A stretch of DNA of 44,382 nucleotides from Chrysochromulina tobinii. Lineage: Eukaryota. Made by a program: the position numbers and the translations under genes. The notes under the pieces were generated by a model. That model had not been told where the DNA came from. It saw nothing but the letters and a program-made list of their open reading frames with translations, and did not search any database. Positions within the stretch are counted from its first letter, which is position 1. Each line of letters opens with the position of its first letter. Shown piece by piece: positions 840 through 34,577 of the stretch. The stretch covers positions 1-44,382 of the forward strand of contig JWZX01003360.1 of assembly GCA_001275005.1 (NCBI GenBank), given 5' to 3'.

Positions 840-1489
840 TCACGCGCGGCGGCGCCTCCGGTCGATGTACTCCTCGAGCCACTTGCCCGTTAAGTGGAAG
901 CACTCGCGCGACACGTAGTCCTGCAGCGTGGCGGAGGCGGAGTACATCGAGATGAGGAAGAGCAGGAAGAGGAAGAAGTAGAGCATCTGCAGCTGCATGA
1001 AGTGCTTGAGGCGTGTTGAGAGCGGCAGCTGCCCGGCGCGCGCAAGCTTGCGATGACGCAAGTTGTCGCTTGGGTGGCCTAGGCACCAGAGCATGTGGAA
1101 GGGGATAATGAAGAGCGCGAGCGTGAGCGCAATCACGTCATCCCACTGCGCATTGATGAACTCGGAGAGCGCCATTGTGGTCACTCCGTACCTGAGTAGG
1201 GAGGCGATCAGTGGTCATCAGAGGGCTACAGAGGGCAGGCCATCGGAGGCAATCAGAGGCCATCAGAGGTCATCAGAGACCACACGGAGGGCGTCGACGT
1301 GGGCACTGCGTACAGCAGAAGGATCGAGAACGCGTTGATCGGCAGCGTGTACAAGAAGATGATCACGTTGGCGTAGAGCACGCGGGACAGCGCCGGCGGA
1401 CCGCGCGGCGGCGGCTTTCGTGTACTGGCGCCCCCGCGGAGGCTCTCCTCATCGTCCTCGTCCTCGTCCTCGTCCAAATCCATCTCCAA

Positions 1490-1521
<32 letters not shown>

Positions 1522-2850
1522 GGGAAAGCTGTCGGCCCACGGCGACCTTGCCGGCGACCTTGCCGGCGACCTTGGGCTTCTTCCCCTTCGCTTTCTTGGG
1601 CTTCTTGCCTTTTTTGGTCGTCGGCTCGGTGATCGGCTGCATCTCCTCGCCATCTCCCGAGTCGAGCCCAAGCAGCTTCGCCTCCGACGGCGGCTGCAGA
1701 TTGAACGCCTCGACGAGAGAGAGTGCGAAGATGAGAAAGATGAAGCCCTGGGTGGAGAAGTACACGGTGAGCACCCAGCTCGCGCCGACGTTGTAGCCGT
1801 AGATGGCGGCACCGACTAAGAAGAAGCTGACGCACAGCTCGCGCGGGAACACGTCGAGCTTCTTCATGATCTTCTCGAGGTCGCAAAAATTCTCCTCGCG
1901 CTTGCCTAGCTTCTGCGTCACCGTCCAGACCATGGCGCCTTTGAGGCCGAGGAGCCCCTCGAGTGATGCGCCTAGCTTGAGGATCGACATCGCGTTCTCG
2001 TACATGACGTACCTGACGAGGGGGGGCATCAGAGGATCATCAGAGGGCCATTAGAGGCTCATCAGAGGCTCATCAGTGGCCATCAGAGGCCATCATGGCT
2101 CATCAGTGGCCATCAGTGGCCATCAGAGGCCATCAGAGGCTCATCAGAGGCCATCAGTGGCCATCAGAGGCCATCATGGCTCATCAGTGGCCATCAGTGG
2201 CCATCAGAGGCCATCAGAGGCTCATCAGAGGCCATCAGTGGCCATCAGAGGCCATCATGGCTCATCAGTGACCGACGTACAGGATCATGTAGTGGAATGA
2301 GCCAGGCGAGAAGGCCATGGTCGTCATGGTCACGAGCATGGGCAGCCACACGATCGCCCACCAGGGCATGAAACGATGGTGCACAGCGCTCTCCGGGTCT
2401 TCGGTCGCGTACACAAGCAAGATCATCGGAACCAGCACGGAATAGAAGGTGAACGAGATCACATTGGTCGCGAGCATGCGCACCTGATGAGGAGGGCCAT
2501 CAGCGGTCAGAGGGCCATCAGAGGGCCATCAGAGGGCCATCAGAGGGCCATCAGAGGGCCATCAGAGGGCCATCAGAGGGCCATCAGCGAGTACTCAGTG
2601 AGCATGCGCACCCCGAAGAAGAGATGTAATCAGAGGCTGACAGAGAGTGCTCAGTGAGTACTCAGTGAGCATGCGCACCCCGAAGAAGAAGATGTTGAGA
2701 TAGGCCTTGTGCAGCGGCGGCAGCGTGGACTCCGACACTGACTGTCGCGCGGCTGCCCACAGCTGCATCGGGCCGCACGACCAGCGCCGCTGCTGCTTGC
2801 GGTACGCGCCGTAGTCGGACGGGATCTCGTTGGGGCAGATCATGTCATAC
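840..2850 (-). CDS. C-terminal half of a cellulose-synthase-like (CslA/CslC-type) GT2 glycan synthase with extra C-terminal TM extension; exons approx. 2850-2679, 2483-2281, 2012-1314, 1191-840; 5' part absent
   Basis: Spliced translation NEIPSDYGAYRKQQRRWSCGPMQLW (QxxRW), FFFGVRMLATNVISFTFYSVLVP, MPWWAIVWLP, YENAMS, WTVTQKLG follows plant CslA/CslC motif order; GT-AG boundaries keep frame. Upstream D, DxD and ED catalytic motifs are not seen in the window. Confidence 0.85.
2013..2280 (-). repeat. Intron filled with about 10-nt tandem repeats (CTGATGGCCT/CTGATGGCCA on the sense strand); representative of many similar arrays across 1192-8536
   Basis: Plus strand shows (catcagaggc/catcagtggc)n; intron starts GTACGTC, which duplicates the start of the next exon. 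Confidence 0.9.
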
Positions 2851-3128
2851 CTGCAATCAGAGACCATCAGAGGCACTCAGCGACCATCAGAGAGGTCATC
2901 ATGGAGGCCATCAGAGAGGTCATCAGGAGGCCATCAGGAGGTCATCAGGGAGGTCATCAGGAGGCCATCAGGAGGTCATCAGGGAGGCCATCAAGGAGGC
3001 CATCAGGAGGTCATCAGGAGGTCATCAGGAGGCTATCAGGAGGTTATCAGGGAGGCCATCAGGGAGGTCATCAGGGAGGTCATCAGGGAGGCAGTCAGGG
3101 AGGTCATCAGGAGGCCATCAGCCTGTAC

Positions 3129-6100
3129 CTCCGGTGAGTCGTAGTGCTTCTGAGCAGCCTTGATGAGGGTTTCAATCCCCCCCGCGTTCCCCATATCGAG
3201 AGCCAGCTCCTCGCATAAGCAACAGTCGCGCACCGAGGCCGCGTACTGCACCTGCACGGCGAGTGAGTCCAGATTCCCGATGAGGGAGGCAATCAGAGGC
3301 AATCAGTGGCAATCAGGGCAATGACGTCATCACCTGCACGGCGAGTGAGTCCAGATTCCCGATGAGGGAGGCAATCAGAGGCAATCAGTGGCAATCAGGG
3401 CAATGACGTCATCACCTGCACGGCGAGTGAGTCCAGGTTCCCTTTTGCGAGCGAAACCACCCTCTCGATCCCGCCCGCAGCTTTGACCGCCCTGAGCAAC
3501 GACGCGTCGTCCGTCGCCCCACTCGCAAGTTTCGTCGCGAGATCTCCGAGCACCTGCCGCCAAGGGGACATGGCGCCGAGGTGAGCACTTGCATGCTTGT
3601 CGCAAGTTTCGTCGCGAGATCTCCGAGCACCTGCCGCCAGGGGACATGGCGCCGAGGTGAGCACTTGCATGCTTGTCGCAAGTTTCGTCGCGAGATCTCC
3701 GAGCACCTGCCGCCAAGGGGGGTGACAGTGTGTGTGATGGACACACGACACACAGAGGACCAGTGTCGTCACGAGATTTGTCACGAGATCTCCGCGCACC
3801 TTGGTGGCGCGTGCCTCCGCCTCGGAGGGCCCCGAGTTGATCGCCACCTGTGGGGAAGGGGACATGGCGCCGTGGTGAGCACCTGCATGCTTGTCGAGGG
3901 CCCCGAGTTGATCGCCACCTGTATCGCGGCCGCGGCCACAATCTAAAGGGAGCAATCTCGGATCAATCTCGGATCAATCTCGGAGCAATCTCCGCGCCCA
4001 CAATCTGCTGCTCAACGGCCGCTGTCTTGTGATGAGGGAGGCAATCAGTGGCAATCAGTGGCAATCAGTGGCAATCAGTGGCAATCAGCGCCATCACCTG
4101 TATCGCGGCCGCGGCCACTATCTGCTGCTCAACGGCCGCTGTCTTGGCCTCCATGGCGACGACAGCGGCCTCGTGCATCACCACGGCCGCCTCCTGTTGC
4201 GAGACCGCTCCTGCTGCAAGGGCGGCTTGCATCTCCTTCGCTTTGGCCGCCGCCGCCGCCGCACCCGCCGCCGCCGCCGCCGCGCCCGCCACGGCGCGCT
4301 CCTTGGATGCCGCGGCCTCGATGGCGGCCGCCTCGGCCGCCGCCTTGGCCGCCTCCTCTGCAGCTCGCCTGATGAAGGGAGCAATCAAGAGGTCATCAGA
4401 GGTCATCAGAGCTCATCAGAGGTCATCAGTGGCCGCCTCCACTGCAGCTCGCCTGATGAAGGGAGCAATCAAGAGGTCATCAGAGGTCATCAGAGGTCAT
4501 CAGAGGTCATCAGTGGCCGCCTCCACTGCAGCTCGCCTGATGAAGGGAGCAATCGTGCACGCTGCAGCAGGCGCCATCGCGAGCGCCATCGGCGCAATCA
4601 CGAATCGCGAGCGCCGTCGCGAGCGCCATCGGCGATGGCCAACAGAAAGGTCGCCCAACGCAATCACAGGAGGACACGGCATTCACAGGAAGGCCATCGC
4701 TGCTGCTGCGTGGCCATCCTTTGGCAGCGGGCCACGCAGCAGCAGCAGCAGCAGCAGCAGGAGAGGCGCCGTCGTGAGCAGCAGCAGCAGCAGCAGCAGC
4801 AGCACACACCTCTCCTCCTGCTCACGACGGCGCCTCTCCTCCTCCTCCTTCTTGCGCGCCTCTTCCATGTGCCTCGCATACGCCTTCTCCGCCTTCTCCT
4901 TGCTTGCATGCTGCTCCTTCCTAATTTGGGGGAGCAGCGCCTCGTAACGGCGCCGATGTAACCACATCGCGACCGTCTTCTCCATCATGGGTTTGGCCCT
5001 GATGAGGGATGTCATCAGAGCTCATCAGCGGGCCATCAGCGGGTCATCCGAGGTCATCCGAGGTCATCCGAGGCACTCACCGGCGCTTGGCCTCAAAGAG
5101 GGCGAACATCTCCATCAGCTTGGGCTTCATCTCCTCGGGATCTGCCTCGGCGAGCTCCTCGAGGAAGGCAGCTGCCCCCATCTTGAAGAACATGCGCGTC
5201 GTGCCGAGCGAGTACTCGTCCTTGTTCACACCGCACGCCTCCGCGATCGCCTCACAGAACTCGGCTGGAGTGAGGGACTTCATGTCGACACCGGGCACGT
5301 CCGAGAGCAGCTTCGCATACCTGTGGGGAGAGCATGGCGCCGTGGTGAGCATATGCATGCAGCGTCGATCCCGAGGAGGGTCCCGAAAGCCGTTGGGCAT
5401 AGCCGAGAGGATGGCGCCGTGGTGAGCATATGCATGCAGCGTCGGTCCCGAGAGCCGTTAGGCATAGCCGTTGGGCAAAGCCGTTGGGCATAGCCGTTGG
5501 GCATAGCCGTTGGGCATAGCCGTTGGGCATAGCCGTTGGGCAAAGCCGTTTGGCATAGCCGTTGGGCATAGCCGTTGGGCATCGCCGCTCGTAAGGAAAG
5601 CGTACCGTGAGTGGACTGCCTCGTAAGGAATGCGTGTCGGGTATCCGCCCTGGATCAATCGCACCGCGTCGAGCGTCCCGCTCATGCGCAGCTGGTCGAT
5701 CACCGACTAAGGAGGCATGCAACCAGCGACCATCAGTGGCAACCAGTGGCCATCAGTGACCATCAGTGACCATCATAGGCCATCAGTGACAATCAGAGGC
5801 CATCGGAGGCCATCAGAAGCCTGTTGGTGCATTCGGAGGCACTCTAAGCCCCATCAGGCGCGATCACCTAATGAGGGAGGCAATCAAGAGATCCTCAGAG
5901 GCACTCCGAGTCCCAACAGGCGCGCTCACCTCTCCGTTCATAAGCAGAGGCTTCAGTTGGGGATTCGACTTGATGCAGCGCACAAACCACGCCTGCGACG
6001 ACTGCAGCTCGGTCATCAGGTCGCGAAGCGACTTGACAAACTTGTTCGCCGACGGACGCAAACGAGGACTGTGCCTTCTGCTTGCCACCGCCACCTTCCT

Positions 6101-9100
6101 TTTCGGGCTCGGGCTTGCACAGGTCTCGTACCTGTGGGGAAATAGCGCCGTGGTGAGCACTGGAGGCACCCTCCTTGTCGGGGTTCGAGGGTGCACAGGC
6201 TGCGTACGATAGGCTTGTTGGATTCGAGTAGGTGCGCCTCGACCTCTTTGGCGAGAGAGTCATTGTTCTTCTCGAGGAAGCCTGAGAAGGGAGGTCATCA
6301 GAGGTCATCAGAGGTCATCAGAGGTCATCAGAGGTCATCAGAGATAATCAGAGGTCATCAGAGGTCATCAGAGGTCATCAGAGGAAGCCTGAGGAGGCAT
6401 GCGCTTTGTGACGCTCGATGGCAATCAATTCAACGTACCCGATGTTGATTGCCATCGGGTACGAGGAGCAATCAACTCAACGTACCCGATTGCAATCAAC
6501 TCAAATCAAATCAACGTACCCGGCTCCTTCTCATCGCCCGCAAAGTAGATGACTTCGCCCGCGAAGTGCTTGACGAGAAAGTGGTCCTCCTTCCCGCGCT
6601 TCTCCGCCTTGCCCATCTTAGGAGCACCGAAGACCGCTGCGGACTTCTTACCGTGTGCCTCGTGCAGGCCAGAGCAAAAGGCCTTACCGGTAGCATTGGG
6701 TGCCTTGCAGGCGGAATCGAGCAGCTTGAAGATGCCACCCGTGGCGTTCTCGCACAGGTCGATGATCTGCTTGTTGTCGAACGCACGTGATTGTTGTTGT
6801 CAGTGGCAATCAGTGGCAATCAGTGGCAATCAGTGGCAATCAGTGGCAATCAGTGGCAGTCAGTGGCAATCAACGTACCTGCTTGTTGTCCTGGTATGCG
6901 ATTGGCGTCCATGCGATGCCCTGTGTGCCGACGAGAGGCGATCAAAGGCGATCAGAGGCGATCAGGGGCGATCAGAGGCGATCAGAGGCGATCAGAACCA
7001 CTCGCACCTCCTCCTTGTACGCCTTGCCTTCGTTCTCAAAGACGGTCGAGAGGAAGAATTGCTGAAGCTTCTCGTTCGCAAAGTTGATGCACAGCTGCTC
7101 GAACGAGTTCACTTCGAAGAACTCGAAGCCGTATCTGTGGGGAAGAGGGCGGGCGCCGGGATGAGCTCTTGCATGCAGCGAACGAGTTCACTTCGAAGAA
7201 CTCGAAGCCGTACACGTCGAGCAGCCCGATGTAGTGCTTGGCACGCTTGACGTCATCGACAGTCTGGTTGATGCGCACCACGAGCCACGAGAAGAGGCGC
7301 GCGTACCTAATTAGGGAGGGGTCGGGCGCCGTGGTGAGCACTTGCATGCCGCGGTCCGCCTTGAGTCCGCCGAGCCACAAAGAGGCGCGCGTACATGATC
7401 TTGACGAGCGCGTCGCGTGCGGCGCATGCATTGGGTACCTGATGAGGGTGGCCATCAGAGGTCACTCATTGGAGGTCCTCAGAGGTCCTCCGAGGCAATC
7501 GGAGGCAATCAAGAGGCGATCGGAGGTCATTCGAGGTCATTTAAGGTCATCCGAGCTCATTTGAGGTCATCCAAGGTCACTGGATGCCATCAGATGTCCA
7601 TCAGATGTCCATCAGAGGTCCTCAGAGGTCATTTGAGGTCATTTGAGGTCATCCAAGGTCACTGGAGGCCATCGGAGGTCCTTCGAGGCACTCAGTGTCC
7701 CTTGCACCGAGTGCTTCGCAAAGGTAACCTCGCCGTTGACGGTGATCGCTCGTGTGGTCAGGAGCTTCTCCATGTCACCCACGCCCAGGAGTTTCTCCGC
7801 GACACGGATTGGGTCATCGGCTCCTTTGGCGTTGACGGTCGCCGTGTCGGCAGTGCCGAAGTCTATGTTGCCCAGCCACATCATACCCGCGAGGCCGGCC
7901 CACCTGATGAAGGATGAAGTTAGAGGCGCTCAGAGGCGCTCAGAGGCAATGGCATGCATGCATGCAATCATGGCCATCGGGCGCAATTCTACCCACATTG
8001 GCATGCATGCAATCATGGCCATCGGGCGCAATCCTACCCATATTGGCATGCATGCAATCATGGCCATCGGGCACAATCCTGCCTACATTTGATCGGCTTC
8101 GTCGGCCGACAGCCCAACGCCCGACAGCAGCGCCGAGGCCGTGTTTCGGTACTCATCTGCGTCGTCGCGCCCAGGGGAGGGAGGGAGGGCGCCGTGGTGA
8201 GCACTTGCATGCAAAGCAGGTCCTCAGTGTCAATCAGTGTCAATCAGTGTCAATCAGTGTCAATCAGTGGCAATCAACGTACCTGCGTCGTTGCGCCCAG
8301 GGCAATCCATCGTGCCCGACAGGTTGATGTAGTAGAAGCTCTCGGGTGGGAGCGCTTTCGTGTGCTTCGTCTTACCCGCGACGAGCTCGTACCTGAGGAG
8401 GGAGGCCATCATAGGTCATCATAGGTCATCAGGGGCCATCATAGGCCATCAGAGGTCATCAGAGGCCATCAGAGGCCATCAGAGGCCATCAGAGGCCATC
8501 AGAGGCAATGGTGGTTCCTCAGCGCCTCCCTCGTACATGACGTGATACGCGCGCTCCTTGGCCTTGGAGGTGGAGGTGACGCGTGAGCGCTCGAGCAAGA
8601 AGACGCGCACCTGTGCGCCCACCACGTCGCACGTGTCCCCGAAACGCACCAAGCAGTACCTACCGAATCGCGACGAGTTGTTGTTGCGCGTCGTCTTGGC
8701 GTTCCCGAACGCCTCGAGGATAGGGTTGGTGTCCATAATCTTCTGGGTGAGAGTGTCCTCAGCGTTCGTCTTGTCGCGGTTGCCGCGCCAGATCAAGTAG
8801 CGCATCAGCTGCCGGTTCGTCTCCGTCTTGCCCGCGCCCGACTCGCCCGAGACGACGATGCATTGGTTGTTCCGCTGCTTCTTCATCGCGGCGTACGACT
8901 GCTCGGCCATTGCAAACTTGTGCGGCCCGCAGCCCGCATTGTAGAGCTTCTTGTTGATGCACTGCAGCATCATAGCCTCGTCGTAGATGCCCGGGATGCG
9001 CCGGAACGGGTTGACGACCACGAGGATGGAGCCTACGAGCGTGTGGATCTTGTCCTCCATGTAGCGCGCGCGCGTGTTCTCGAGCAGCGTCGGCGGTGAG

Positions 9101-9339
9101 AGGAACATGAGCTGGCAGTGGTCGGGCACGTTCTCGCCTGGATGCGGCTGGTGGCACTCTTCGAACGGCAGCACGAGCTCCTGCGTCTTCTCGCCGTTCG
9201 ACGTGACCACTGTCACCTGCTGCTTCTCGTCGATCGACTGCACCTCCGCCTTGCCGTAGAGATCCGTGCCGTAGATGGCCTTATCCTTGACCCACACCTG
9301 TACGCCTGGCCCGATTCCCTTCTTCTTCTTCGGCGCCAT
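3129..9339 (-). CDS. Myosin heavy chain (motor, IQ-like, coiled coil, ARM-like tail), about 18 exons: 9339-8537, 8392-8283, 8156-8087, 7903-7708, 7438-7395, 7306-7214, 7134-7008, 6920-6879, 6766-6520, 6281-6208, 6131-5930, 5706-5606, 5320-5081, 4998-4810, 4368-4098, 3847-3800, 3553-3416, 3251-3129; no stop codon found; apparent 1-nt frameshift near 6050
   Basis: [10 protein letters not shown]-loop, [85 protein letters not shown], all recovered in order by GT-AG splicing; tail [11 protein letters not shown] and [12 protein letters not shown] resemble ARM repeats. Confidence 0.93.
5453..5582. repeat. 13-bp tandem repeat (gccgttgggcata)n inside a myosin intron
   Basis: About 10 near-identical units read directly. 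Confidence 0.9.
7950..8090. repeat. About 45-bp tandem repeat x3 inside a myosin intron
   Basis: ggcatgcatgcaatcatggccatcgggcgcaatcctacccacatt-like unit repeated three times. Confidence 0.85.
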
Positions 9340-9619
9340 GGCCGCCGGCCCAGGCCTTCGCAAGGCGAGGGCTGCTCGGCCCAAAGACTACTTTGAGTCG
9401 GAAACTTGGCAAATCACACTTCGCGCATGGAAACCCTAGCAAGGGGGTCGCATCGCATGAACTCGCACCGAAACAGCGCCTTGTTTGTCGCGCAACCGAG
9501 CGCTCGTGAAGTTGGAGTATGCGCCTCGATTTGCGAGCAGGGCTGCACCCGCGCGTGCGTCCTACTCGTCTCGCCGCTCGACTCTCGCCTGTCTCTGCTC
9601 CGCAGCCACCGCGCACACC
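9340..9619. promoter_or_regulatory. Short divergent intergenic region shared by myosin and VTA1 (probable bidirectional promoter)
   Basis: Head-to-head ATGs 280 bp apart; no specific motif identified. Confidence 0.4.
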
Positions 9620-10555
9620 ATGGCAGCCGCCCCCCCTCAGTCGCTGAGAGGGAAGATCGTCGCGTACCTGAACCAGGCCAAGGAGCGGTCGGACGCGGGA
9701 GAAGCGCTGATTGCGTACTACTGCAAGGTCCACGCGCTCTCGGAGGCGATGGCCGTGCGCTCCCAGATCCCCAAGGCGGACATGGGCTACGTGATCGGGC
9801 TCATGGACCAGGTCGAGGCGGAGAAGAAGCGGGTGGGCAACCTCGATGACGCGCAGATGCTGATCGAGATGAAGGCGAGCGAGCTCTTCGACCGCGCCGA
9901 CACTGCCGACCGCGCCACGCCGACCGTGCCCAGGCTGCAGACCGCCAAGGACTTTTACGCGGCTGCGACGCTGTTCGAGGTGTGCAAAGAGTTTGGGGAG
10001 CTACCGGACGACTTATCGGAGAAGGTGAAATATGGCAAGTGGCGGTACATCGAGATCTGCAAGGCCGCGAAGGAGAAGCGCGCGCCCGAGCCGCCGCGCG
10101 GCCTCGATCTTGGCGAGGACGGTGCCGATGGCGGCGCGCCAGAGGGCGACCCGCCGCCGGCCGCGACATCGTCGTCCGCCCAGTACGACGCGCCTGGCCA
10201 CTCGGCAGGGGCTGCGTACTACGATGGGGGCGCGTCGTACCTCGACCTTCCGTCCGCGGCGCCCGCGCCCGCGCACGCGCAGCCTTCTACGGCGGCGGGT
10301 TTTAGCTCGAGCTCCTTTCAAGCTCCGGCACCTCCTTCACACGCGCCGCCCGTCAGAGGCCCCTCGTTCACACCGCCTTCACACCCGGGGTTCAAGCCTG
10401 ACCGGAACGCGATCGTGGAGGCCGCCGGCCTCGCCAAGTCGGCGGTCTCGAGTCTCCAGTTCCAGAATATCGACACTGCGGTTGCGAACCTGCAAAAGGC
10501 GATCACGCTCCTCACGATGCCGCAGGCGCCGACGGACGACGACGCGACGCCTTGA
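9620..10555 (+). CDS. VTA1: Vta1/LIP5 ESCRT-associated Vps4 regulator
   Basis: N-terminal MIT-like IAYYCKVHAL and FYAAATLFEV..FGEL..KVKYGKW; Pro-rich linker; C-terminal VSL AKSAVSSLQFQNIDTAVANLQKAITLL; intronless. Confidence 0.9.
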   Translation: MAAAPPQSLRGKIVAYLNQAKERSDAGEALIAYYCKVHALSEAMAVRSQIPKADMGYVIGLMDQVEAEKKRVGNLDDAQMLIEMKASELFDRADTADRATPTVPRLQTAKDFYAAATLFEVCKEFGELPDDLSEKVKYGKWRYIEICKAAKEKRAPEPPRGLDLGEDGADGGAPEGDPPPAATSSSAQYDAPGHSAGAAYYDGGASYLDLPSAAPAPAHAQPSTAAGFSSSSFQAPAPPSHAPPVRGPSFTPPSHPGFKPDRNAIVEAAGLAKSAVSSLQFQNIDTAVANLQKAITLLTMPQAPTDDDATP

Positions 10556-12281
10556 GCCGAGGAGGAAAACTCTTCACACCTACTTCACAGCTCCTTCACA
10601 CGCCTTGAGCGAGGATGAGCACGATGCGCGCCAAGAAGCGACGCGTGGCTCGGTCGACGGGCTGGCTCGTGGGGGGCAGAGGAGTAGAGCGGGCTCACAA
10701 GTCGTGCAGGATCGGGTCGAGGTTGCACCCAGCGAGAACGGCACGGGCCCAGCCCCACAGCTCAGTACGGTGCTCGGGCGGAGCTCGGACCTTGCACATT
10801 AAATGATGATTGCATGTTGGAAATCGGAGTGAAACAGTATGATGAATTTGCGACTTGGAATATGTTTGTTGCAATTCGGGATCTTCGCCCCGCCCGCGCG
10901 ACGGGACCCGCGGGGCGCGGATTCCGGATCGACCGTTACACAGATCTCGGGGATGCGCGGTCGTACCACGTACGCGCCCGGCGATTGCCATGGCGATTGC
11001 CCGCCCGACGTTAAGTTGCCGTATAGCTTTCGAGTATAGCTTCGACGAATTTTCGGGGTATGCGGTATCGCGGTACCGGGGTACAATGATACCGCGAAGC
11101 TACAGCGCCCCCGGGGCCACGAGCCCGCATACGCGACCACGCATCATGCGCGACCAAGAGTCACCACAAAACAGCTCCACTTAACAACGACACCATGACG
11201 ACAGTACGCGGTGGACGCCACCTCTCTTGACTCTTCGAGAACATCGGCGATTCCGCGTGCTGGAAATTCTCTGTAGACGATACCGGAATAATCGCGTACG
11301 CAATGATCGCTCTTGTTATTCATTGAAAGAGTCCCGGCCTCCCCTCACGTCTCTGAAGCAGAGAGCTCCACGCCTCTCACAATTAATGTCGACAGATGTA
11401 AAAACAGGTTGGTTTGTTTTTTTCTAGTGAGTCGTCCGATGCGTTGGCGGCGAGGGAGGTCTGGTGACGGAGGGAGTCGAACGAGCTCTATCTCGACGGC
11501 GGCGGTGGGTGTTTGCGTTTGGGTTTTTGCTGTGACCAACCTGAAAAGGGGTGCCAGGAGCTGCCTCAAATAGATTTCTGGCCCTTTTGCGCGCTCGGCA
11601 AAAGGCAAGCTCTTGCGACTCTTGCGAGCTTTGTGTGGCGAGCGAAATCAGACCCATGATCACGTTGCTCAGCGCGCAGATGGCGCAGAGCAGCGAGAAG
11701 GTGTCGGTCACCGGCCACTCGTCGGGCTGATCCGTAAAGCGCGCGCGAGGCAACGACGCTCAAAGAATCCCGGCGTGCGCACAAAGGGCCGGAGGAGCAT
11801 GGCCAGCACGAGCCACGCGTGGTCACACATCGAGAGAGCGCAGTCTCGCACGCCCAACCTGGACGCCGCAGGACGGCAGTGAGGGCATCCACAACGAACT
11901 GCCACGACCTCCAGAAGTGATCCACAGTCTCGTGGGCGAGTATTAGCAAACGGTGGACGTCGTCCTCGTCGTGCTCGTGCTCGCAGCGGTAGCCATCGTC
12001 GTCAGCGTCTGCTGCGGCACCACAGCGCTCATCGGCGCCACCAGTCACACTTGAATCTGAAGGTGGATATCTTACACTGGATTTAAAAGCTGCCTCGGAA
12101 AAAAACAATATGTTCTTCGCGGGGGCGAAGCGCGTGCCGTTACCCGTTTGCAGTTAGGGTTAGCGTACCGTAGTTTGAAAGGCGGCGCCGCAATCGCATA
12201 GCTACGGTAACGCCTAGTACCCCTATATACCCGGACTCGCACGGCCCGTCTGGCTGAAATGGACCTCAGTCTAATTGCCAT

Positions 12282-14186
12282 CTAGCACAGCATTTGGACT
12301 CCCGGCTGCATGGCGGTGCGTGCCATCAGACGGCGCTCGCCTTCAACGGCCGCGTACCCCTTGGCGCCGCCGTACGCGTGGGTGGGCGTCACCGAATGCA
12401 TCGTGCTCAGGTTGTCGAAGAGCACCACGTCGCCGGGCTGCCACGCGAGGACCACGAGGTGGGGGGGGCGGGCGGCCGGTGCGAGCAACGCCTCGAGGAA
12501 CGCCTGCGAGTCTGCCCACGACAGGGGGACGCGACGCTCAACACGGCGCCCGTCAGACCTGGTTTCGTCGACCGTTACGGTTTCGTCGACCGTTACGGTT
12601 TCGTCGGCCGTTACGGTTTCGTCGGCCGTTACGGTTTCGTCGACCACCTCCTGCTCCTCGAGGTGGTCGAGGCACACGCAGTGCACGACACAGAACTCGC
12701 GTGCGCTTGTGTCACGCTGCACGAGCGCATGACGAAAGAAGCCGTCGCCGCCGGGTTGAGCGCCGCGATGAGCGCCGTGTTCACCGGAGGCAGTCGCGGT
12801 GCTCGAGCGCTCATCATGGCGCTCAGCGCTTCCGAAAGCGAGCTCCTCGAAGGGTGTGAATTCGAAGGGTGTGAATTCGGTGATGCTCCGGTGCTTGGGT
12901 GCGCCCGCCACGGCGCCTGTGGGGAGTTCCTCGGGCGGCGGCGGCGGGTAGAGCGGAGTGATCCAAGAGGGGGCCATGGACGGGTACTGCCCGTCGACTA
13001 CCCGACCGAAGCCTTCCTTGTAGCAGGCGACCATCCGGCGTGCGCGTGTGCGCAGGGCCGGTGAGGCGAGTTTCAGGGGAAGACGCGTGCTGAAGAAGAG
13101 CGTCGCACCCGCTGGGCAGACCAGCCTGGGTTCGTCGGCCGTTACAGTTTCGTCGGCCGTCACGGTTTCGTCGGCCGTTACGAAACCCGCTGGGCAGACC
13201 AGCCTCGACTCCTCCTGCTCACGACGGCGCCTCGACTCCTCCTGCTCACGACGGCGCCTCGACTCCTCCTGCTCACGACGGCGCCTCGACGCCTCCTCCT
13301 CCGCCGCCGCCGCTGCCGTCGTGAGCGGAACGGACGCGCTGTAGCGGGCGGGCGCTTGGATCGGCGACGGCGCGGAAGCTCGAGCCGTTGATAACGGCTG
13401 CCATCGAAGCGTCATCTCGGGCGATCGGGACGGCGCCTCCTCACAATACATGGACACCACCGCGGGGGGTGGCGGTGCTGTCGCGCTGAAGCCGCCGTCA
13501 TGGTGGAACTGGCACCCAATCTTCTCCCACCTGATGAGGGAGGCCATCCGAGATGGGCATCAGACGTCATCAGTCATGATGAGCAGTCGCAATCAGTGGC
13601 ACCCAATCTTCTCCCACCATGCGGTAGGCTCGAGGCGGCCGCGGAGCCCATGCCACGAAACGTCCTCCGCAAACCCGAGCACATTGGTCTCGGGGAAGTC
13701 CGAGAAGGTCTCCCCGCGGAGATTGCGCCGCGCCCGAGGGTCGGAGCCGCTGTGGTGGGCACTTGCATGCACCCGTTGGTCGGACCCCTCCGCCGCCATC
13801 GCTGCCATCGATGCCATCGGGCTCGTCGCTGTCGTGGCGTTCGCCCTGGGCTTAGGTAAGACGAGCGGGACTGAGGGGTGACACGCGCGGTGCACCTTGG
13901 TATACACATCGCGCAGCTGCTGTGGAGTCAGAGGTGGCTCGGTAGCATCCACACGACGCAGCCGAAGCAACGAGTGCTCACGCAACGCCTCGCCGAGCTC
14001 CCAGAGCCGAGGGTCATCCTCGGAGAGTCCGGCGACAGTCGACGGGCTCAGCTCGCATGCTTGCACTCCCAAACTTGGGCCTAAGGGTACCCACTTGAGC
14101 CGTGCCGCGCGCCGCCGAAGGCTGAGCAGCCGGCGGCCAAGGTAGCCGACGGCCAGAGCGATCAAGGCGCGGGAGAGCCAAAGCAT
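12282..14186 (-). CDS. TauD/TfdA-family Fe(II)/2-oxoglutarate dioxygenase with N-terminal hydrophobic segment; intron 13531-13617
   Basis: LGPSLGVQ, FHHDG (HxD), GATLFFST, WQPGDVVLFDNLSTMHS, RRLMARTAM; intron removal joins ORFs 13593-14399 and 12282-13547 in frame. Confidence 0.85.
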
Positions 14187-14600
14187 GAAGCGCCCGTGGC
14201 AGCGCGGTTCCGTCGAAAAGCCTTCCCATGTCAAGCCCAACCATCCCCTTAGCCACTCCCTCGCACGACGCCCCCACCACGGTCCACGCGGTCCCCTCAC
14301 GATGAAACTCGTCAATCCCCCACATCCATCGCACGCCCCAGCTGCGAAAGGCCCAACTGGAAATAGGCCGGTAGGCGCAAGTACCTTACAAGTACTCAAG
14401 GACCATTCACACTCGCAGTACTCCAGTGCGCCTCTATTACATGTACATTGTATTATCGTTCCATTTTCCCTTGATTAGTGGACGGATTGAGGTTTTTTTT
14501 CCGTCGAGCTCTTCCGAGAAATGATTGCGGATTTCGTTGGGGTGCGTCCGAAAAAAAGGGTGTAACGTGACACGCGGCCGCTTTGGCGGCGCATCCCAAC

Positions 14601-16853
14601 ATGGAAGATGACAGGCAAATGTCAACCGACAGTGTGATAGAAAGCCTCTTCGAGTCGTTGGGCCAGCTCGAGGGCGCCCAGGACTCCAACGGCAAGTCGG
14701 AGCAGAGGAGTATGAGCGCCTTCTTGGCCATGGAGGTGGTGTGCTCATCAGACGTGATGATGGCTGTCGAAGCCGAGCGATCATCCCCCTATAGCTCCAA
14801 CACGGAACGCTCGAGCTTTGATCAAGGCTCGAACGATGCAGGGTCGATGGAATGGCGACTCGCGCCCGCGCCTGCTTCGAACCTTCCATCGCCGCCTGCT
14901 TGGAACGAGATTGAGCACGTGCTGTATACAGCGGGGCAGGCTCCAGCAGCAGCAGCAGCAGTGTTCCCCCACCCGGCGATGGCGCCGGCGATGGCGCCGG
15001 CGATGGCGCAGGCGATGGCGCAGTCGCCTGCGATTTCGCCGGCGATGGCACCGACGCCGACGCCGTTGCACCCATTTCCCCCAACGGGCACGTGGGCCTC
15101 GGCGCCGGCGTGCTCCAGCGCGCCCTTGATGCGGTCACTACAGCCGCTGCACCAAACGTCTCATCAGAAAATGCAGCAACTGCCGCAACAGCCGCTGCAA
15201 CCGCAGCAGCCACCGCAGCCGCAGCAGCCGCAGCAGCCGCCGCAGCCGCAGCCGCGCGCGCACCACTGGGTGATGAGTGATCGGACCGCTCCGGCGAGTC
15301 TTTCCGGTGCGCCAGCCTTTCGCACGATGCTCAACGGCATGCTGCAACCTCCGGGGCTCTCCTCGCATGCAACGGCATGCAATGGCATGCAACCTCCGGG
15401 GCTCTCCTCGCATGCAACGGCATGCAATGGCATGCAACCTCCGGGGCTCTCCTCGCATGCAACGGCATGCAATGGCATGCAACCTCCGGGGCTCTCCTCG
15501 CATCCTATCCGACCGGGCAGCAGCATGCCTGCAAACGCGCCGGGCAGCAGCATGCATGCAACGGCGCCGGGCAATAGCATGCAAGCATACATGCCGTCGC
15601 ATTCAGGCTCGTGGACTGTGCATGATGGACAGTCGTTTGCGACGCAGATGCGCGAGAAGCGCCCTCGTGAGCATCCCCAGCCCCAGCTACAGCGCTACAA
15701 CAGCCTCCCGGCCACCGAGCCTGGCACCCATGCTCCGAGTCAGTCTCCGCTCCAGCGCTACCAATCCATGCCAAGCCAATCCATGTCAAGCCAATCCATG
15801 CCGCTAAGCTCCGCGGCGCTGCAAACGATGCCCACGGTCACCCAAGCGCACGGCGGCTCATACTTTGGCTCCTCTGGGGGGGGAGTGGGGGGAGTGGGGG
15901 GGGGCGGTGCGCCGGGTGCGCCGGGTGCGCCGGGTGCGGCATGGGGCGGGGCTGGGGCCGGGAATCCGTTGCCCCGTGCGCAAAGCGTGATAGACGCTAT
16001 GGCGTACCTAGCGGCCAATGGAGCCGTTGGGGCCGTTTCGACGGGTGGAGCGGCCGCTCCCACGAACCCGAACGGCAGCACGCACGGCGGCCGTCTGTTC
16101 AACCACGTCGCAGCCGGAGGCACAGCTGGCAACAACGGCGCCCAGAACGGCGCCCAGAACGGCGCCCAGAACGGCGCCAGCGGCAGCGGAGTTGTCGGCG
16201 CCCAGGTCGGCGCTTCGGCCGCTGCGGAGGCCGTGGCGGCGGGCTTGTCTCCGGCCTTGGGGACCCTAATGACTGACGGCTTTCAGATCGTGGGCGGAGG
16301 CCTCCAGATGTATAAGTGCTTGCTCGACCTGATACCAAGCCCGATCTTCGTGCGCTCAGGTACGTTGATTGCCACTGATGACCTGCCTGGCATGCAAGTG
16401 CTCACCACAGCGCTCCCCTGCTCTCCGATCTTCGTGCGCTCAGCCGATGGCAAGATCCTGTACACGAACCGATGCGGCTTCGTGACGCTCGGCGAGGCGT
16501 CGAGCGCCCTGCCCGCTGCATGGCAAGTCACGCCCCAGCTCGCCCCTACGACCCACTCGTCGCGCCGTGCAGGGGACAAGGAGGGTGAGGTCGACCTTCC
16601 ACGCGACCCCGTACCGGCCGCCACCGCCACCAACGAGCCGTTGCCGCCGTTGCCCGCGGCTTCGCACGGCTTCTCGGTGCTGATCCAGGGGCGCTCGACT
16701 CCCATCCGGGCTGTGCTCCTGATGCATCGCATCCCATTCTGGCTCGCGAGTGCCGATGGGAGTGCGCACTCGGCGGTGTGCATGTACGTGGCCCCTGTCG
16801 CGGGCTCCGTGTCGCACACCTTCTACCCCACGCACCACAACCCCGAGGTGTAG
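14601..16853 (+). CDS. Low-complexity (P/Q/G-rich) protein with C-terminal PAS-like domain; in-frame intron 16360-16443
   Basis: Long ORF; after removing the intron it reads LLDLIPSPIFVRSADGKILYTN, a typical PAS N-terminus. Confidence 0.65.
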   Translation: MEDDRQMSTDSVIESLFESLGQLEGAQDSNGKSEQRSMSAFLAMEVVCSSDVMMAVEAERSSPYSSNTERSSFDQGSNDAGSMEWRLAPAPASNLPSPPAWNEIEHVLYTAGQAPAAAAAVFPHPAMAPAMAPAMAQAMAQSPAISPAMAPTPTPLHPFPPTGTWASAPACSSAPLMRSLQPLHQTSHQKMQQLPQQPLQPQQPPQPQQPQQPPQPQPRAHHWVMSDRTAPASLSGAPAFRTMLNGMLQPPGLSSHATACNGMQPPGLSSHATACNGMQPPGLSSHATACNGMQPPGLSSHPIRPGSSMPANAPGSSMHATAPGNSMQAYMPSHSGSWTVHDGQSFATQMREKRPREHPQPQLQRYNSLPATEPGTHAPSQSPLQRYQSMPSQSMSSQSMPLSSAALQTMPTVTQAHGGSYFGSSGGGVGGVGGGGAPGAPGAPGAAWGGAGAGNPLPRAQSVIDAMAYLAANGAVGAVSTGGAAAPTNPNGSTHGGRLFNHVAAGGTAGNNGAQNGAQNGAQNGASGSGVVGAQVGASAAAEAVAAGLSPALGTLMTDGFQIVGGGLQMYKCLLDLIPSPIFVRSGTLIATDDLPGMQVLTTALPCSPIFVRSADGKILYTNRCGFVTLGEASSALPAAWQVTPQLAPTTHSSRRAGDKEGEVDLPRDPVPAATATNEPLPPLPAASHGFSVLIQGRSTPIRAVLLMHRIPFWLASADGSAHSAVCMYVAPVAGSVSHTFYPTHHNPEV
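15335..15503 (+). repeat. Coding 45-bp tandem repeat (GMQPPGLSSHATACN) x3-4
   Basis: Visible in DNA and in translation. Confidence 0.85.
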
Positions 16854-17204
16854 CGAGAGGTGGGATAGAGATCAAGTGCGCCGCATTGCGTTCCATGTCC
16901 GTTCCATGAGATGTCAGATGTGCATGTTGCAAGCCGTCCTGTTGCTGCTGCTTCTGCTGCTTCTGCTGCCGACCTGACGGCGCGCTGTGGCAGCCGCATG
17001 TACTATTCTCCCCCGTGCAGTCTACACGCGTGTTCACGCGTGCAATTCATGTCGGATACGGATGGAAAAACGGCACGCATAAAATACACCATTTATGATT
17101 TAAACGACGCACTAACGCTCTTGGCCGGCTTTTTGGCCGCGGGGCAAAGATGATGGACCCCTGAAACGCGTCCACGTCTGAGGCCTGACACTAACTCCTT
17201 GTCG

Positions 17205-20024: not shown

Positions 20025-20222
20025 CTTGGCTGGACGGCTGACACCGGGTGCACGGGCCGTGCTATTTGTGATCCAAGGGGACCGCACGAAAAAAGTCAGG
20101 TGGCGACCGACTGTGTGAGCAGCGGGCCGGGCCCAATATGACCTTCATAATCGTTTCGACGTCATTGACAAATTAATGAAATCTATCGATGAGAAGCTAC
20201 CGGTACCCGCGCGGCGATCTAT

Positions 20223-23470: not shown

Positions 23471-23957
23471 CGCGGACGGATGCCCCGATCGACGGTGTGA
23501 ACTGTGAAGCAACTTGTGAAGCCTCGCTGTTCAACACAACGAGCAGCGCCCCACTCGGCGCGGTTTCGCAGCACAAGCGGCGTCGTGCGGTGATGATAGG
23601 AGATAGGAGTTGACTTGTGTGACCTTTTTTTCCTCACGAACAGGATAGGGGTCGTCGCACTCTTCCGGAGCAGTGGCGTTTGTCCTAAATTTCCATTTTT
23701 CCGAAAGCTAAGGTCCGCATGCGTAAGGACGAGCCCTTTTCCCCTCTGTGGATTCCGAACAGGAGAGGGGGTCGGGTACCGACCGGGTATGATGAATAGA
23801 TCATCTCCCTAACGGTATGTCGTATGATGAATGATCATCTCCCTAACATCTCCCCACAAAAGAGAAGACCTCAGGCATACCCCCAGCCCTGCGAACTGTC
23901 TGTTGGGCGCCCGCCAGAGCATATCCCCATAGCCTGTGAGAGACGGTCACCTTTATA

Positions 23958-25277: not shown

Positions 25278-25460
25278 CCAGATAAGGTTGAAAACTCAGA
25301 ACCACGACCAAAGCAGCACTTCAAGGGATTCAGAAACGAGGAATCAATATTTGGATTTTGTCGTCGTCGCGGAATTCGTCAAATCGCGTGTCGGGGCAAT
25401 AGGCTCCCAGCCCCGGGGAACGGTCGGCTTTTCGCTCGAGGCAGTCGGGGAACCGAACGA

Positions 25461-26243: not shown

Positions 26244-26469
26244 GGAACGGATGCCGGGACAGGATGCGAGTGAGCGTGCAATGACCTGGTCCATGTTGAC
26301 GAGGCCGCTGCGGTGTTATGGATTGCTGGAATCGGCCCGCGTGCCCGTGTCGCAGTGTCGGGACCGTTTGGGGGTGAGTGATCGAACCAGAATCTCGCGG
26401 AATCGCTGTCCAGGTCTCGCAAAAGCGAGATTCGCACCGTTTTTGGAAAGGTGTGAGGTGGGAGACACG

Positions 26470-29400
26470 ATGCCTCCGTCTTTCGAAGCCACCACTGACG
26501 CCGACGCGTCCAACGACGCAAAGCGCTTCAAGGCGCACCCGGTTGTGAGCACGTCTGCATCGTTGATCTCACAGCCATCGCTGACGTCCACATCGCCAAT
26601 AAATGAGCCCGAGAGCCGCAATGAGTGGGCTGCAAAGATGGCAGGGGGTGTCGTCGACTTGTCCAGCGAGGGCTTTCTGACGCCGCTCCGCTTCGGTGGC
26701 ATTGTGCACATTTTGTCTAGCCCGGAATGCTGCACCACGGACTTGGACTTGCATCACCTCAGTCTGGGCCCCGTGTGTTCCAAGCTGCTGGCCGGTGCCG
26801 TCGCGTCGAACTCATCGTTGAAGCGGCTGAACATCGAACGAACTGGGCTCGGGATCGCGGGCGGCGTTGCTCTGGGCGAAGCGCTGAGGTGCAACACGAC
26901 TCTTGTGAGGCTCGACATGAATGTCAATGACATCGCCCCGCTTGGCGGCATGGCGATCGCCGCAGGGCTGCAGAGCCACCCGTCCCTGACAGAGCTGTCA
27001 CTCGCAAAGTGCGGTCTCGGTCCAGGCGGCGCCAAGGCGCTCGGCGCGGCGCTAGAGACGAATACGAGCATTCGCACCCTCGATATGACCCAGAACGACG
27101 TGGGTATCGAGGGCGGCGTCGCCTTTGGCAGGGCGCTCGCACTGAACGCGACGCTCCGCTCGCTTAGCCTGCGTTGCAATCGCATCTCGACAGGCCTGAG
27201 CACGGAGCGCGCGACGGCCTTTGCCGACGCGCTCGAGGTCAACGCCACCCTGACGTTCCTCGACTTTGCCCAGAACGAGCTTGGCCCGCTCGGTGGCGTC
27301 GCGTTCGCCAAGGCCATCGAGAGGAACAAGTCGCTCACCACGCTCGACTTGCAGGTGCGCCTCCACTGATGAGCTCTGATGAGCTCTGATGACATCTGAT
27401 GACATCTGATGACATCTGATTGCCTCGACTTGCAGCGCAACGAGCTCGGCGCGACGGGCAGCGCCGCTCTGTGCACAGCCGTCGGGCGGAATGCATGCTT
27501 GCGCACCCTGAATCTCAAGGAGAACGAGATGGGCGTCGAGGGGGCGCGCGCGCTCTCGAGCGCTCTCGCGCTCAATACGGCGCTCACGAGCCTCAACGTG
27601 GCCTTGAACGGCTTTGGGTCCGAAGGCGGTGCCGCCTGGGCCGCCGCCTTGGTGCTCAACACGACGCTACTCAGCCTGTCGATCGATTCGAACGGGCTCG
27701 GCGAGGAGGGCGGCGAGGCGCTCGCGACGGCGCTCGTGCACAAGCACCCCGCTCTCACGTTCCTCAGGTTCGTCACGTGATTACCACTGAGTGCCACTGA
27801 GTGCCACTGAGTGCCACTGAGTGCCACTGATTGCCACTGAGTGCCACTGATTGCCACCGACTCATCATCAAGACGCTCTCACGTTCCTCAGGTTCGTCAC
27901 GTGATTGCCACTGAGTGCCACTGTGTGCCACTGACTGATCATCACGACGCTCTCACGTTCCTCAGCGCGTCCTCTAACGGGTTCGGCTCGTCGGGCGCGT
28001 CGCTGGGCCGTGCCGTTCACGCTTGCCCGGCGCTGCGCAAGCTGGCCCTCGAGGACAACAAGATCGACGACGAGGGCGGCGTGGCGCTGTGCGATGCCTT
28101 CGCAGCTCAGGCGGAGCTCGTCGATCTCAATCTCGCCTTCAACGAGATCAGCGCACTGCCCATCGAGTGCCAATTACGTCTCGCCCAAAAGATGTCCTCA
28201 CCAACGGCCCTCCTCGACCTCAGCGGCAACATGCTCTCCTCACCGCCCCTGGCACACCGCGCTGCGCCCCAGATGCTCAGCGACTACCTGCGGCTGCTCG
28301 CCGCGGAGCCACATCCTCTCGAGCGCCTTCGCCTGATGGTCGTGGGCTTCGGTGGCGTGGGCAAGACGACCTTCTGCGGCGCCGTCACGTGCCCGTCGGA
28401 CGAGCGTGGCACGTACCACGCGTCGCTCTCTCACTGCTCTACCTGGGACAGCCGCATGATGGCCTCGTGGGCGCGTGGCCTTGCGACCCAACGCGGCCAC
28501 GCGTGGGCTGAGAAAGTCGCCGCCGTGCTCACGGAGCACTCAATCTGCGGTGCCGATCTGCCCTCGTTGCTGCAGTCGACTGAGCCGGGAGGAGGCGGCG
28601 GAGGAATCGGAGGCGGCCTCGAGCTCCGACCGGTCGCTGAGGGGCTCGGTGCACTGCTCGGGACGGCCGAATGTCCTTGCACCGACTTCGGCCCATCGCC
28701 CAGGCTCGACGCCCTTGGGAGTGCTGGTAGGCTCGACCCTCGCGAGGACCTGCCTCGCATGCAAGTGCTCCGCACGGCGCCCCGTTCCCCTCTTCACAGG
28801 TGGACTCGACCCGCGCATGCAAGTGCTCACCACGGCGCCCCATCCCCCTCTTCACAGGTGGACTCGACCCGCGCGAGTGCCAGCAGCTCGCCCTCGCGAT
28901 CGGCTCGCTGCTTCGGAAGGGCTACTTCTCGACTGTCGGTGCGGTCAAAGTCGAGGGCTCGCTGCAGCTCCCGATGCCGGACTACGGCGGCCCTATCAGC
29001 ACACGCGAGTGCTCGCTCGTCGACTTCGCAGGCCAGATGGAGTATCTCGTCTCTCACCAGCTACTGCTCGCTTCGATGCACACGCTGTGCGTCCTCATCC
29101 AGCCGCTCGGCTCGTTTGCCGATGCGACCAACCGCCGGCACGGCAGCTGGCGGTACTGGCTGCAGTTCTTAAGAGCCCTCGGTGACCGACGTGGCAATTC
29201 GATGGTGCTCAGCGTCTCTCAACTCGACAAGGTGCCGACGGAGGAGATGAGCGCGGCACGCGCCGCCGTAACGGCCGAGTTCGCCGCGCTCCGCGCCCAG
29301 GTGGGCGCCGGGTTGGGCGAATCTCCCCTCGAGCTCGATTACCGACCCGACGAGATCGAGAGCTCGCTGCTGGAGGCGCGGCGCCGGCTGAGCGAGGCCG

Positions 29401-30872
29401 CGGAGGCGGTCTCAAAGGACTGGTGGGTACCCATGAGCTATGATTGCCTCTGATGAGCTATGATTGCCTCCCTCATCAGAGGCGGTCTCAAAGGACTGGT
29501 GGGTGCCCATGAGCCATGAGCGGCTCGCGGACCTGCCTTGCATGCATGGGCTCACCACGGCGCCTCACCTCCCTCCCTTCCCCACAGGTGGGTGCCCAAG
29601 AGCTATGAGCGGCTCGCGGAGGTGGTGCGCGCCATAGGCCACTCGAAGGCACAGCAGCGCGCCCTACCCATCCTGACTCGGGCAGAGCTGCAGGCGGCGG
29701 TCGAGGCCGCGGGGCAGGAGAGCCTTGTGCGGATGTGCTCCGACCCGTTGCTCCTGCAGCGCGGAGTCGATTACCTCGAGGCCGTCGGCGATGTGATGAG
29801 CGACCCTCGGCTGGATGTGCTTCTCCTCGATCCTGTGGGCTGGTTCGCGGCGTTCCTAGCGCACTTCATTCGTGACGACGGCAATCCGCCGGCGGAGATT
29901 GTGAGGGGGATCGTGACGCTCTCGGATGTGGTCAGGGCGCTGCGCCATGAGTACACCGCGCCCGAGCAGCAAGTGCCCGAGGTGATGAGCCTCGTGTGCA
30001 ACCTCGAGCTCTGCATTGAGCTGTGTGCTCTCGAGAGGACGGGGGAGGCCGGCGCGGGCTCCTACCTCTTTCCGTGCCTCCTGCCCGCCGCCACGCCTGC
30101 CGAGGTGGCGGCTCATTGGCCGGTAGGCAGCTGCCCAGTCCCCCACCCCGTCCTGGGCGCGGCGGCATGCGCTCAGGACGGCGCCGCGCTCGTCGTCCGC
30201 GGCCACCGCTTCCGTGCGCGGGAGGGCTTCGTGCCCCCTGGGCTCTTCCCCACACTGGTCGCGCGCCTCGCGAGGCTGCCGGAGCGCTGCGTGCACTCGT
30301 CGCGCCTGTGGAAAGACAAGGCCGTCGTGCGCTTCCGCGAGGCGTCCGCGCTCCTCCGTGTCGACCTGTCGGCCGCGACACTCGACATCGTCGTGGCCGC
30401 TCCAACCGATGCTCTCCACTTTGTAGGGGCCGCCAAGGGCCAAGCCAGCGCGCTCCGTTGGCTGGCGCACCTCGTTCGCCAGATGCTCGCTCGTGCGTAC
30501 TCACAGATCGTCTTTGACGAAACCTGGCTGTGCCCTTCGCCGAGCTGCCACGGACTGCCAATGACGAAACCTGGCACTGGCCAGCCATTGACGAAACCTG
30601 GCACTGGCCAGCCATTGACGAAACCTGGCCCTGGCCAGCCAGTGGTGCCAGCTGCCGAGGTCGGCCCTGGATTCGGGGTGTATCGCGGCACCGAGTTCGA
30701 GCTCCAGCCGATCAAGATGAGAGCCGGCCACGTGTGCGAGGACGAGGGCTGCTGGCACTTTCTCGGAACTGGCCACTCGAAGGAGCGACTCGACTTGTGC
30801 ACCCCTTGCGAGTCGAGCCTGTGCACGGGCTGTGGCCAGACGCCCTACTTTCGTCTCGAGGCTGGGAGGTGA
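26470..30872 (+). CDS. Roco-type protein: RNI-like LRRs, Roc GTPase with SAM-like insert, COR; introns approx. 27355-27435, 27768-27965, 28727-28857, 29423-29587; start and end uncertain
   Basis: LRR units NxTLxxLDL; LMVVGFGGVGKTT (G1), STVG, DFAGQMEYLVSHQ (G3), SQLDK (G4), VPKSY, YLFPCLLP, VPPGLFPTL. Confidence 0.85.
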
Positions 30873-34550: not shown

Positions 34551-34577
34551 GTTCAAGTTCAAGTTCAAGTTCAAGTT
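34551..34577 (-). repeat. (TTGAAC)4 3' tail of the LINE
   Basis: gttcaa x4 + gtt on the plus strand, about 370 bp downstream of the last stop codon; short tandem tails are typical of several APE-LINE clades. Confidence 0.7.

Follow-up and report, generated by a model that had tools for sequence, protein, structure and literature searches.

Introns with variable-length exon duplications and shared sequence modules in a contig of the haptophyte Chrysochromulina tobinii

Positions 1 to 44,382 of contig JWZX01003360.1 of Chrysochromulina tobinii (NCBI GenBank assembly GCA_001275005.1), hereafter the window (44,382 nucleotides, GC content 62.7%), carry a myosin gene with ARM repeats (named orthologue in Prymnesium parvum, 65% identity), a GT2/mannan-synthase-like gene, a TauD-family gene, an LRR-Roc-like gene and a divergent L1-like element without long terminal repeats (non-LTR element). 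An earlier note on this DNA had described, between 1192 and 29587, an intron-manufacturing system in which splice-signal modules are inserted between variable-length duplications of exon sequence. The present analysis concerns these introns, their junction duplications, the sequence that they share and the way in which they may have arisen.

The window catalogue holds 26 introns, and seven others from L001, a further sequence of the myosin-ARM gene, bring the comparison set to 33. Boundaries were taken from spliced alignment to orthologues (myosin, GT2 and LRR-Roc genes), those of 6282-6519, 4369-4809, 3848-4097 and 28727-28857 were set by hand, and 13531-13617 and 16360-16443, which stand outside the orthologue test, keep the boundaries of the earlier note; the hand-set donor of 6282-6519 agrees with the orthologue peptide. 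A 27th intron, 2851-3121, falls at a misjoin of the window and is therefore not counted. In layout 1 the duplication starts with GT and the insert between the two copies supplies the AG; in layout 2 the duplication ends in AG and the insert starts with GT. The features are as follows, with duplications given as matches/length where both were measured.

1192-1313, reverse strand: intron of the GT2/mannan-synthase-like gene; layout 1, duplication 13/15 nt, 10-mer array and CTCAG acceptor
2013-2280, reverse: intron; layout 1, duplication 7/7 nt, long 10-mer array
2484-2678, reverse: intron; layout 1, duplication 12/12 nt and a second, internal junction copy
2851-3121, reverse: 10-mer-array intron at the misjoin (myosin-ARM upstream, GT2 downstream), outside the counts
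3252-3415, reverse: myosin intron; layout 2, duplication 26/27 nt, tandem-doubled unit, only the final AG absent from the insert
3554-3799, reverse: myosin intron; layout 1, duplication 18/20 nt, extra tandem units inside
3848-4097, reverse: compound intron; layout-2 event (exon copy of about 49 nt), nested AG-ending insert (7-nt duplication), then layout-1 event; 3' end set by hand
4369-4809, reverse: compound intron holding the upstream exon as an inverted copy of 23 nt and, twice over, a unit made of exon start, array and acceptor; two predicted introns merged by hand
4999-5080, reverse: full-length module intron without junction duplication
5321-5605, reverse: intron whose GCTCACCAC acceptor module is doubled; no junction duplication that passes the threshold
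5707-5929, reverse: module intron without junction duplication
6132-6207, reverse: intron; decayed 16-nt layout-1 duplication, below the scoring threshold
6282-6519, reverse: compound intron in which three GTACGTTGA donor modules stand with an older acceptor, an 8-nt copy of the exon start, an array and an acceptor
6767-6878, reverse: intron; layout 2, duplication 12/12 nt, GTACGTTG donor, array and patch filler
6921-7007, reverse: intron with diverged 10-mer array, without duplication
7135-7213, reverse: intron; layout 1, duplication 34/35 nt and truncated acceptor module
7307-7394, reverse: intron; layout 1, exact duplication 15/15 nt; codon position that of an L011 intron (see below)
7439-7707, reverse: array intron without duplication
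7904-8086, reverse: intron with units in tandem; no duplication that passes the threshold
8157-8282, reverse: intron; layout 2, duplication 19/20 nt, one insert made of donor and acceptor modules
8393-8536, reverse: intron; layout 1, duplication 7/7 nt, then an inverted patch of its own acceptor
13531-13617, reverse: intron of the TauD-family gene; layout 1, exact duplication 21/21 nt, 6-nt microhomology
16360-16443, forward strand: intron; layout 2, exact duplication 19/19 nt, insert a near-full-length donor plus acceptor
27355-27435, forward: intron of the LRR-Roc-like gene; layout 2, duplication 12/12 nt
27768-27965, forward: intron; layout 2, duplication 18/18 nt, doubled unit
28727-28857, forward: intron; layout 1, duplication 17/20 nt, boundaries set by hand
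29423-29587, forward: compound intron; layout 1 and a later CATCAG-ending insert, duplication of about 40 nt spanning the donor site
30869-31205, forward: 10 tandem units (donor-like GTGAGC piece and exon-end copy) at the LRR-Roc-like gene's end; an amplified layout 2, beyond the span of the earlier note and not counted
34500-44382, reverse: L1-like non-LTR element, divergent, with endonuclease (PF03372, E 6.5e-4), open reverse transcriptase (RT) frame (E 1e-5 to L1 ORF2), DUF4326, (TTGAAC)n tail

When junction duplications are scored as matches minus twice the mismatches, a score of at least 7 is reached by 16 of the 26 window introns (10 in layout 1 and 6 in layout 2), and by 8 of the 1056 mismatched intron/exon pairs that serve as the null; a score of at least 12 is reached by 12 of the 26 and by none of the 1056. 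A direct repeat of the adjacent exon at the intron's opposite end is thus found above background, and the earlier claim that most introns are so flanked holds for about 60% of them and fails for the remainder. The 11 introns that the claim had cited all have GT..AG ends and duplications in the layouts described, with the lengths listed above; the figures to be corrected are those for 27768-27965 (18 nt, not 17) and 8157-8282 (20 nt with one mismatch, not about 21). Junction duplications range from 7 to 35 nt, and up to about 49 nt where nested, their two copies often carry substitution differences, and AG|GT stands at only 10 of the 33 intron sites. Terminal inverted repeats (TIRs) are absent, as had been proposed, an inverted match of at least 7 nt being present in 1 of the 33 introns as against 3.5% in the null; both marks of an introner of the DNA transposon type (miniature inverted-repeat transposable element, MITE), namely TIRs and a fixed short target-site duplication (TSD), are therefore missing.

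The sequence between the copies is largely held in common, since a shared module occurs in 23 of the 26 window introns. The shared pieces are the GTACGTTG donor, arrays of a 10-mer with CTGAT, which we take to be a branch-like motif, and two acceptor modules ending in CATCAG or CCACAG. Within introns the 10-mer matches 108 times in sense and never in antisense (matches that sit in arrays and are hence not independent counts), with 10 scattered single matches outside introns, and the other four motifs together give 34 sense and no antisense matches, with 6 outside introns; a motif scan of both orientations detected no module clusters outside introns. Layout-1 inserts end at AG and are 5'-truncated, and so combine the variable TSD and 5' truncation looked for in a short interspersed nuclear element (SINE) or other non-LTR element. 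Layout-2 inserts are often near-full-length introns from which the final few bases are absent. Donor and acceptor modules stand together in a single insert at 8157-8282 and 16360-16443, so that the template resembles a whole intron, and the separate donor-only and acceptor-only modules originally envisaged give way to inserts that resemble whole resident introns copied in truncated form.

Similarity over both terminal 20-mers, at the threshold adopted here, is found in none of the 528 pairs among the 33 introns, and similar 3' ends link 37 between-gene pairs and 34 same-gene pairs, an absence of same-gene bias from which it follows that spread was not only local. Measured against the introner definition of PMC9860276, the sharing of sequence across unrelated genes is present in the modules and the between-gene pairs, and the similarity to both boundaries among at least four members is lacking in this set of only 33 introns. 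A SINE-type head (tRNA, 7SL or 5S) gave no match at the gathering score in 1100-8600, Rfam returning only sub-threshold hairpin matches. Module patterns matched one viral contig, which is apparently chimeric and uninformative, and were not found in prokaryote genomes; a second pattern returned nothing. Three further observations concern the distribution of this material. The introns are strongly clustered, with 24 in the myosin gene, and eight long open frames at 9620-33622 (VTA1, ankyrin-repeat, SDR and others) are without a module cluster. A degenerate acceptor-module sequence lies on the reverse strand at 13740-13775 inside the open frame of the TauD-like gene and is possibly an exonised remnant. 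A near-identical CTCCTGCTCACGACGGCGCC repeat occurs at 13160-13290 (TauD-like gene) and at 4729-4850 (myosin coiled-coil region).

That these segments are introns is supported indirectly. Removal of 24 introns from L001 yields a frame of 1608 residues, six orthologues cross 20 to 23 of the 24 junctions gap-free, and 13 of the 24 intron lengths are not multiples of three. The 31-mers of 4900-9400 are present in fourteen RNA runs at fractions of 0.45-0.57, the spliced form predicting 0.49. Two results speak against splicing: 13531-13617 is retained in an RNA-library contig at depth 16, and the comparison of contigs with 800-17000, which was flooded by module repeats, gave no clean splice joint among the 15 joints listed. 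As to the assembly, a misjoin lies inside 2851-3121, where L001 continues with ARM repeats as in the orthologues and the window jumps into the GT2 gene; the apparent myosin-glycosyltransferase fusion is accordingly false, being the product of this misjoin between the myosin-ARM gene and the neighbouring GT2 (beta-mannan synthase-like) sequence. At 6045 the window has one extra base relative to L001, which shifts the myosin frame and is probably an assembly error.

The recency of the introns was judged from relatives and orthologues. When the read-through peptide of the modules was compared with 1.84 billion representatives, P0050 was the sole match, and 15 of the 17 members of its cluster could be aligned, at 86-96% identity and at the protein level only, to the window LRR-Roc protein; these proteins are translations of unspliced DNA, because they read through module introns. 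In this relative (about 91% protein identity) the site of intron 27768 is empty, the protein running straight through it, in 14 of the 15 proteins and that of 27355 in 11 of the 15; three others begin exactly at 27355 and one reaches neither site, and site 27355 may, judging by these translations, be polymorphic in the relative. The relative in turn has module introns that are absent from the window, two of them in 13 proteins and a third in 3, and at two of these three the exon peptide is repeated around the module. One LRR-gene intron, 28727-28857, is common to the window and the relative (13 of 15 proteins), and its duplication has decayed; both of the window-restricted LRR-gene introns carry duplications at the DNA level.

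More distant comparisons agree. Orthologue L016 has the same modules at three intron positions, none of which coincides with any of the 10 that the window has over the aligned stretch, and one of its three introns shows the same layouts, while orthologue P0079, located on a contig of 148 kb, runs on across seven intron sites. Reciprocal presence and absence with respect to a relative about 91% identical, together with empty sites in orthologues, support the recent gain that had been claimed, and on these alignments intron turnover is recent. At one site, KIM|Y, an intron is present both in the window (7307-7394) and in L011, a myosin of 44% identity from another likely haptophyte, with different filler, which would reflect either parallel gain or an old intron that was remodelled; a third KIM|Y intron suspected in P0079 was rejected. 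Spliced alignment being unreliable for L011, L003, L014 and L015, only four hand-located introns of L011 (3666-5396) were used, and three of the four show duplications, in both layouts (11/13, 12/12 and 25/27 nt). Its two layout-1 introns are filled with CCCTAA-like repeats, in sense only. Haptophyte telomeres are reported as TTAGGG (PMC3622300), so that a telomerase origin of the window's 10-mers is unsupported, and a telomerase link for the CCCTAA-like filler of L011 is a lead rather than a result.

How such introns come about may be pictured as follows, in a scheme to which we give about an even chance: resident introns would be copied into staggered breaks through microhomology-primed template switching. 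A staggered break or stalled end would arise in an exon, and its repair would copy part of an existing intron from a microhomology primer, leaving an exon stretch of variable length duplicated on both sides of the insert. One end of the insert would be an intact splice signal, and the other, truncated, would be attached through microhomology of 1-6 nt or through patch filler. Only those inserts whose splicing restores one exon copy would then be kept by selection, that is, a GT-starting duplication with an AG-ending insert (layout 1) or an AG-ending duplication with a GT-starting insert (layout 2), and the direct repeats and 10-mer arrays would thereafter likely promote both expansion and nested re-insertion, perhaps precise loss as well. 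This scheme takes the observed anatomy, shared modules, sense orientation and empty sites in relatives as its ground, and to these would add splicing, a break, an enzyme and a template, whether of DNA or of RNA.

Several features of the junctions point in this direction. In the 9 testable introns of 18, the variable junction shows 20 nt of microhomology to the module in all, where random exon ends give 6.6 +/- 2.9 (P 0.001); the other 9 of the 18 have filler without a template in the set. Inverted patches occur at 8393 and 4369, a long antisense patch being present in 1 of the 33 introns, and patch or filler and microhomology outcomes of this type are described for SD-MMEJ/TMEJ and MM-BIR (PMC7407515). 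Intron L001:16578-16681 carries an exon copy that is native to L001:17762-17849, so that a resident intron served as the template here and was copied between two ARM repeats of the gene. The relative differs in which module introns it has, and the cell therefore likely makes introns by copying resident ones into breaks. Against this reading it must be said that half of the junctions lie outside the microhomology test, in which one 6-nt case weighs heavily; that strict sense orientation without clusters outside introns would require strong selection or transcription coupling, beyond a plain DNA template; that the nested inserts in 3848-4097 and 29423-29587, apparently unselected, end exactly at AG, which fits an RNA template better; that Pol theta patches measure 1-25 nt (PMC7407515) and the inserts here 45-100 nt; and that 10 of the 26 window introns have no junction duplication. 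Moreover, at the site of 8157-8282 the duplication is 20 nt long in the window, and allele L002 has there an exon copy of about 44 nt with a different interior, so that duplication length changes once the insert is in place and some long copies may be secondary.

The last two points are what would be expected if a conventional introner with a short TSD or none had inserted whole introns, the long duplications appearing later through slippage or through partial conversion, across the junction, of intron-bearing alleles with intronless ones or with cDNA. Copies of the exon start behind older acceptors at 6282 and 4369 fit this view as well, and a TIR-less family with a 4-bp TSD is known from a Chrysochromulina metagenome-assembled genome (MAG), with 618 of 618 copies in genes (PMC9860276). 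We nevertheless consider it unlikely, since it is the lineage-restricted introns that carry duplications and the shared intron whose duplication has decayed, and since no pair is similar at both ends, so that no unremodelled family is visible in the 33 introns. A template of RNA we hold to be rather unlikely too. Excised and debranched intron RNA would be reverse transcribed at a nick, by target-primed reverse transcription (TPRT) with the RT of a long interspersed nuclear element or by RNA-templated repair, priming at the 3' AG of the RNA with 5' truncation giving layout 1, and priming at internal microhomology, with the full length copied up to the 5' GT, giving layout 2. Variable duplications and 5' truncation are hallmarks of non-LTR elements, the modules are sense-only and intron-only, the AG-precise nested inserts named above have duplications that do not start with GT, and the L1-like element at 34.5-44.4 kb offers an endonuclease and an RT with an open frame, to which the Pfam model RVT_1 gives no match. 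On the other side, the modules and this element have no 3' tail in common (no match longer than 13 nt, the element ending in its (TTGAAC)n), the inserts lack poly(A), the modules have no Rfam match, and the neutral and antisense copies that TPRT should leave do not cluster anywhere in the window. Of the two routes proposed by the earlier note, break repair is favoured by the junction microhomology, patchwork and fold-back filler, and TPRT is neither established nor refuted by the L1-like element, which has no tail in common with the modules.

It is very improbable that the introns are old, with losses (easy through direct repeats) behind the lineage differences and the modules being conserved splice signals only. 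Presence and absence is unpolarised by itself, the KIM|Y intron is found in both the window and L011, and three proteins of the relative begin exactly at 27355; but the positions in L016 do not coincide with those of the window, P0079 runs through seven sites, and exact duplications of 12-34 nt with module identity over 20-36 nt cannot be old. Scarcely credible is the view that assembly of repeat-rich introns created the duplications as artefacts. The misjoin at 2851-3121 is real, and at 6045 there is a 1-nt indel relative to L001, but the same duplications recur in L001, in allele L002 and in a contig of run X16 spanning 13366-14154, and 59 contigs carry the peptide read through intron 2013-2280; the two copies, besides, often differ by substitutions, and other species show the same layouts.

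The copying of resident introns into breaks would be less isolated among published systems than the earlier note had implied, for TIR-less Chrysochromulina introners (PMC9860276) and staggered-break introns of Daphnia (PMC4202315) are already on record. The former, family 5 of TARA_PON_109_MAG_00232 (PMC9860276, Fig. 2C), are haptophyte, TIR-less, genic elements of about 70 nt with a 4-bp TSD, which bring their own 5' site and co-opt a 3' site from the duplication, as in layout 2; compared by description, they differ from the window introns in that short TSD and in being similar at both ends, whereas here duplications of 7-35 nt (nested, about 49 nt) occur in both layouts, inserts are truncated on one side and a match at both ends is found in 0 of 528 pairs. 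The Daphnia pulex introns, ascribed to staggered double-strand breaks, share the direct repeat of adjacent exon, nested repeats, parallel gains and allelic variation, but their repeats are 4-12 bp long and their AT-rich inserts come from mostly unknown sources (PMC4202315), while the repeats here are longer and the inserts derive from a shared intron pool with ready splice signals.

Looser parallels exist elsewhere. The introner elements of Micromonas (without TSD or TIR) and the introner-like elements of fungi are likewise sense-only, gene-biased intron copies for which an RNA route has been proposed, but they insert precisely, without duplication, and are similar from end to end. Models of tandem genomic duplication, intron transfer and intron transposition (PMC3443670) also let a duplicated exon provide a splice site, and one transfer between ARM repeats is seen here, yet in the window a foreign module between the copies supplies the other site, and few sites are AG|GT (10 of 33). 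Replitron-1 of Chlamydomonas resembles the inserts in its orientation specificity, variable TSD and one fuzzy end, and a Replitron protein is reported from C. tobinii, but no terminal direct repeat or transposase was seen in the window, and the excerpt of PMC10288648 does not report the making of introns. In PMC12130899 C. tobinii is listed with 0 introner families and about 72% of introner families are unclassified, recent surveys crediting transposons. The literature searched, to which subscription papers mostly did not belong, held no account of introns with duplications of both layouts in haptophytes. The case joins two known routes, the introner-like spread of shared intron sequence and the break footprint of the Daphnia type, and falls outside introners by the similarity of both ends and outside MITEs.

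Taken as a whole, the phenomenon is real and recent and is likely to be mechanistically informative, with the qualification that the support for splicing is indirect and that close precedents exist. The origin of new spliceosomal introns is a long-standing question. Gain by break repair in Daphnia came without a source for the inserted DNA, whereas here the source (resident introns), the footprint of the break and empty sites in close relatives are visible in one gene. Pipelines for introner discovery demand similarity at both ends, and introns built by break-copying would therefore escape them. Tentatively, and more as speculation than as expectation, haptophytes may run a transposon-free, self-templating intron factory, in which spliced-out intron RNA (and, in the lineage of L011, also telomere-type CCCTAA repeats that contain a CTAAC branch motif) would be written into breaks in transcribed exons, the duplication left by the break providing the splice site that the insert lacks and permitting precise loss later on. 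The system offers a testable route to intron origins, for which population metagenomes and RNA runs with this DNA already exist.

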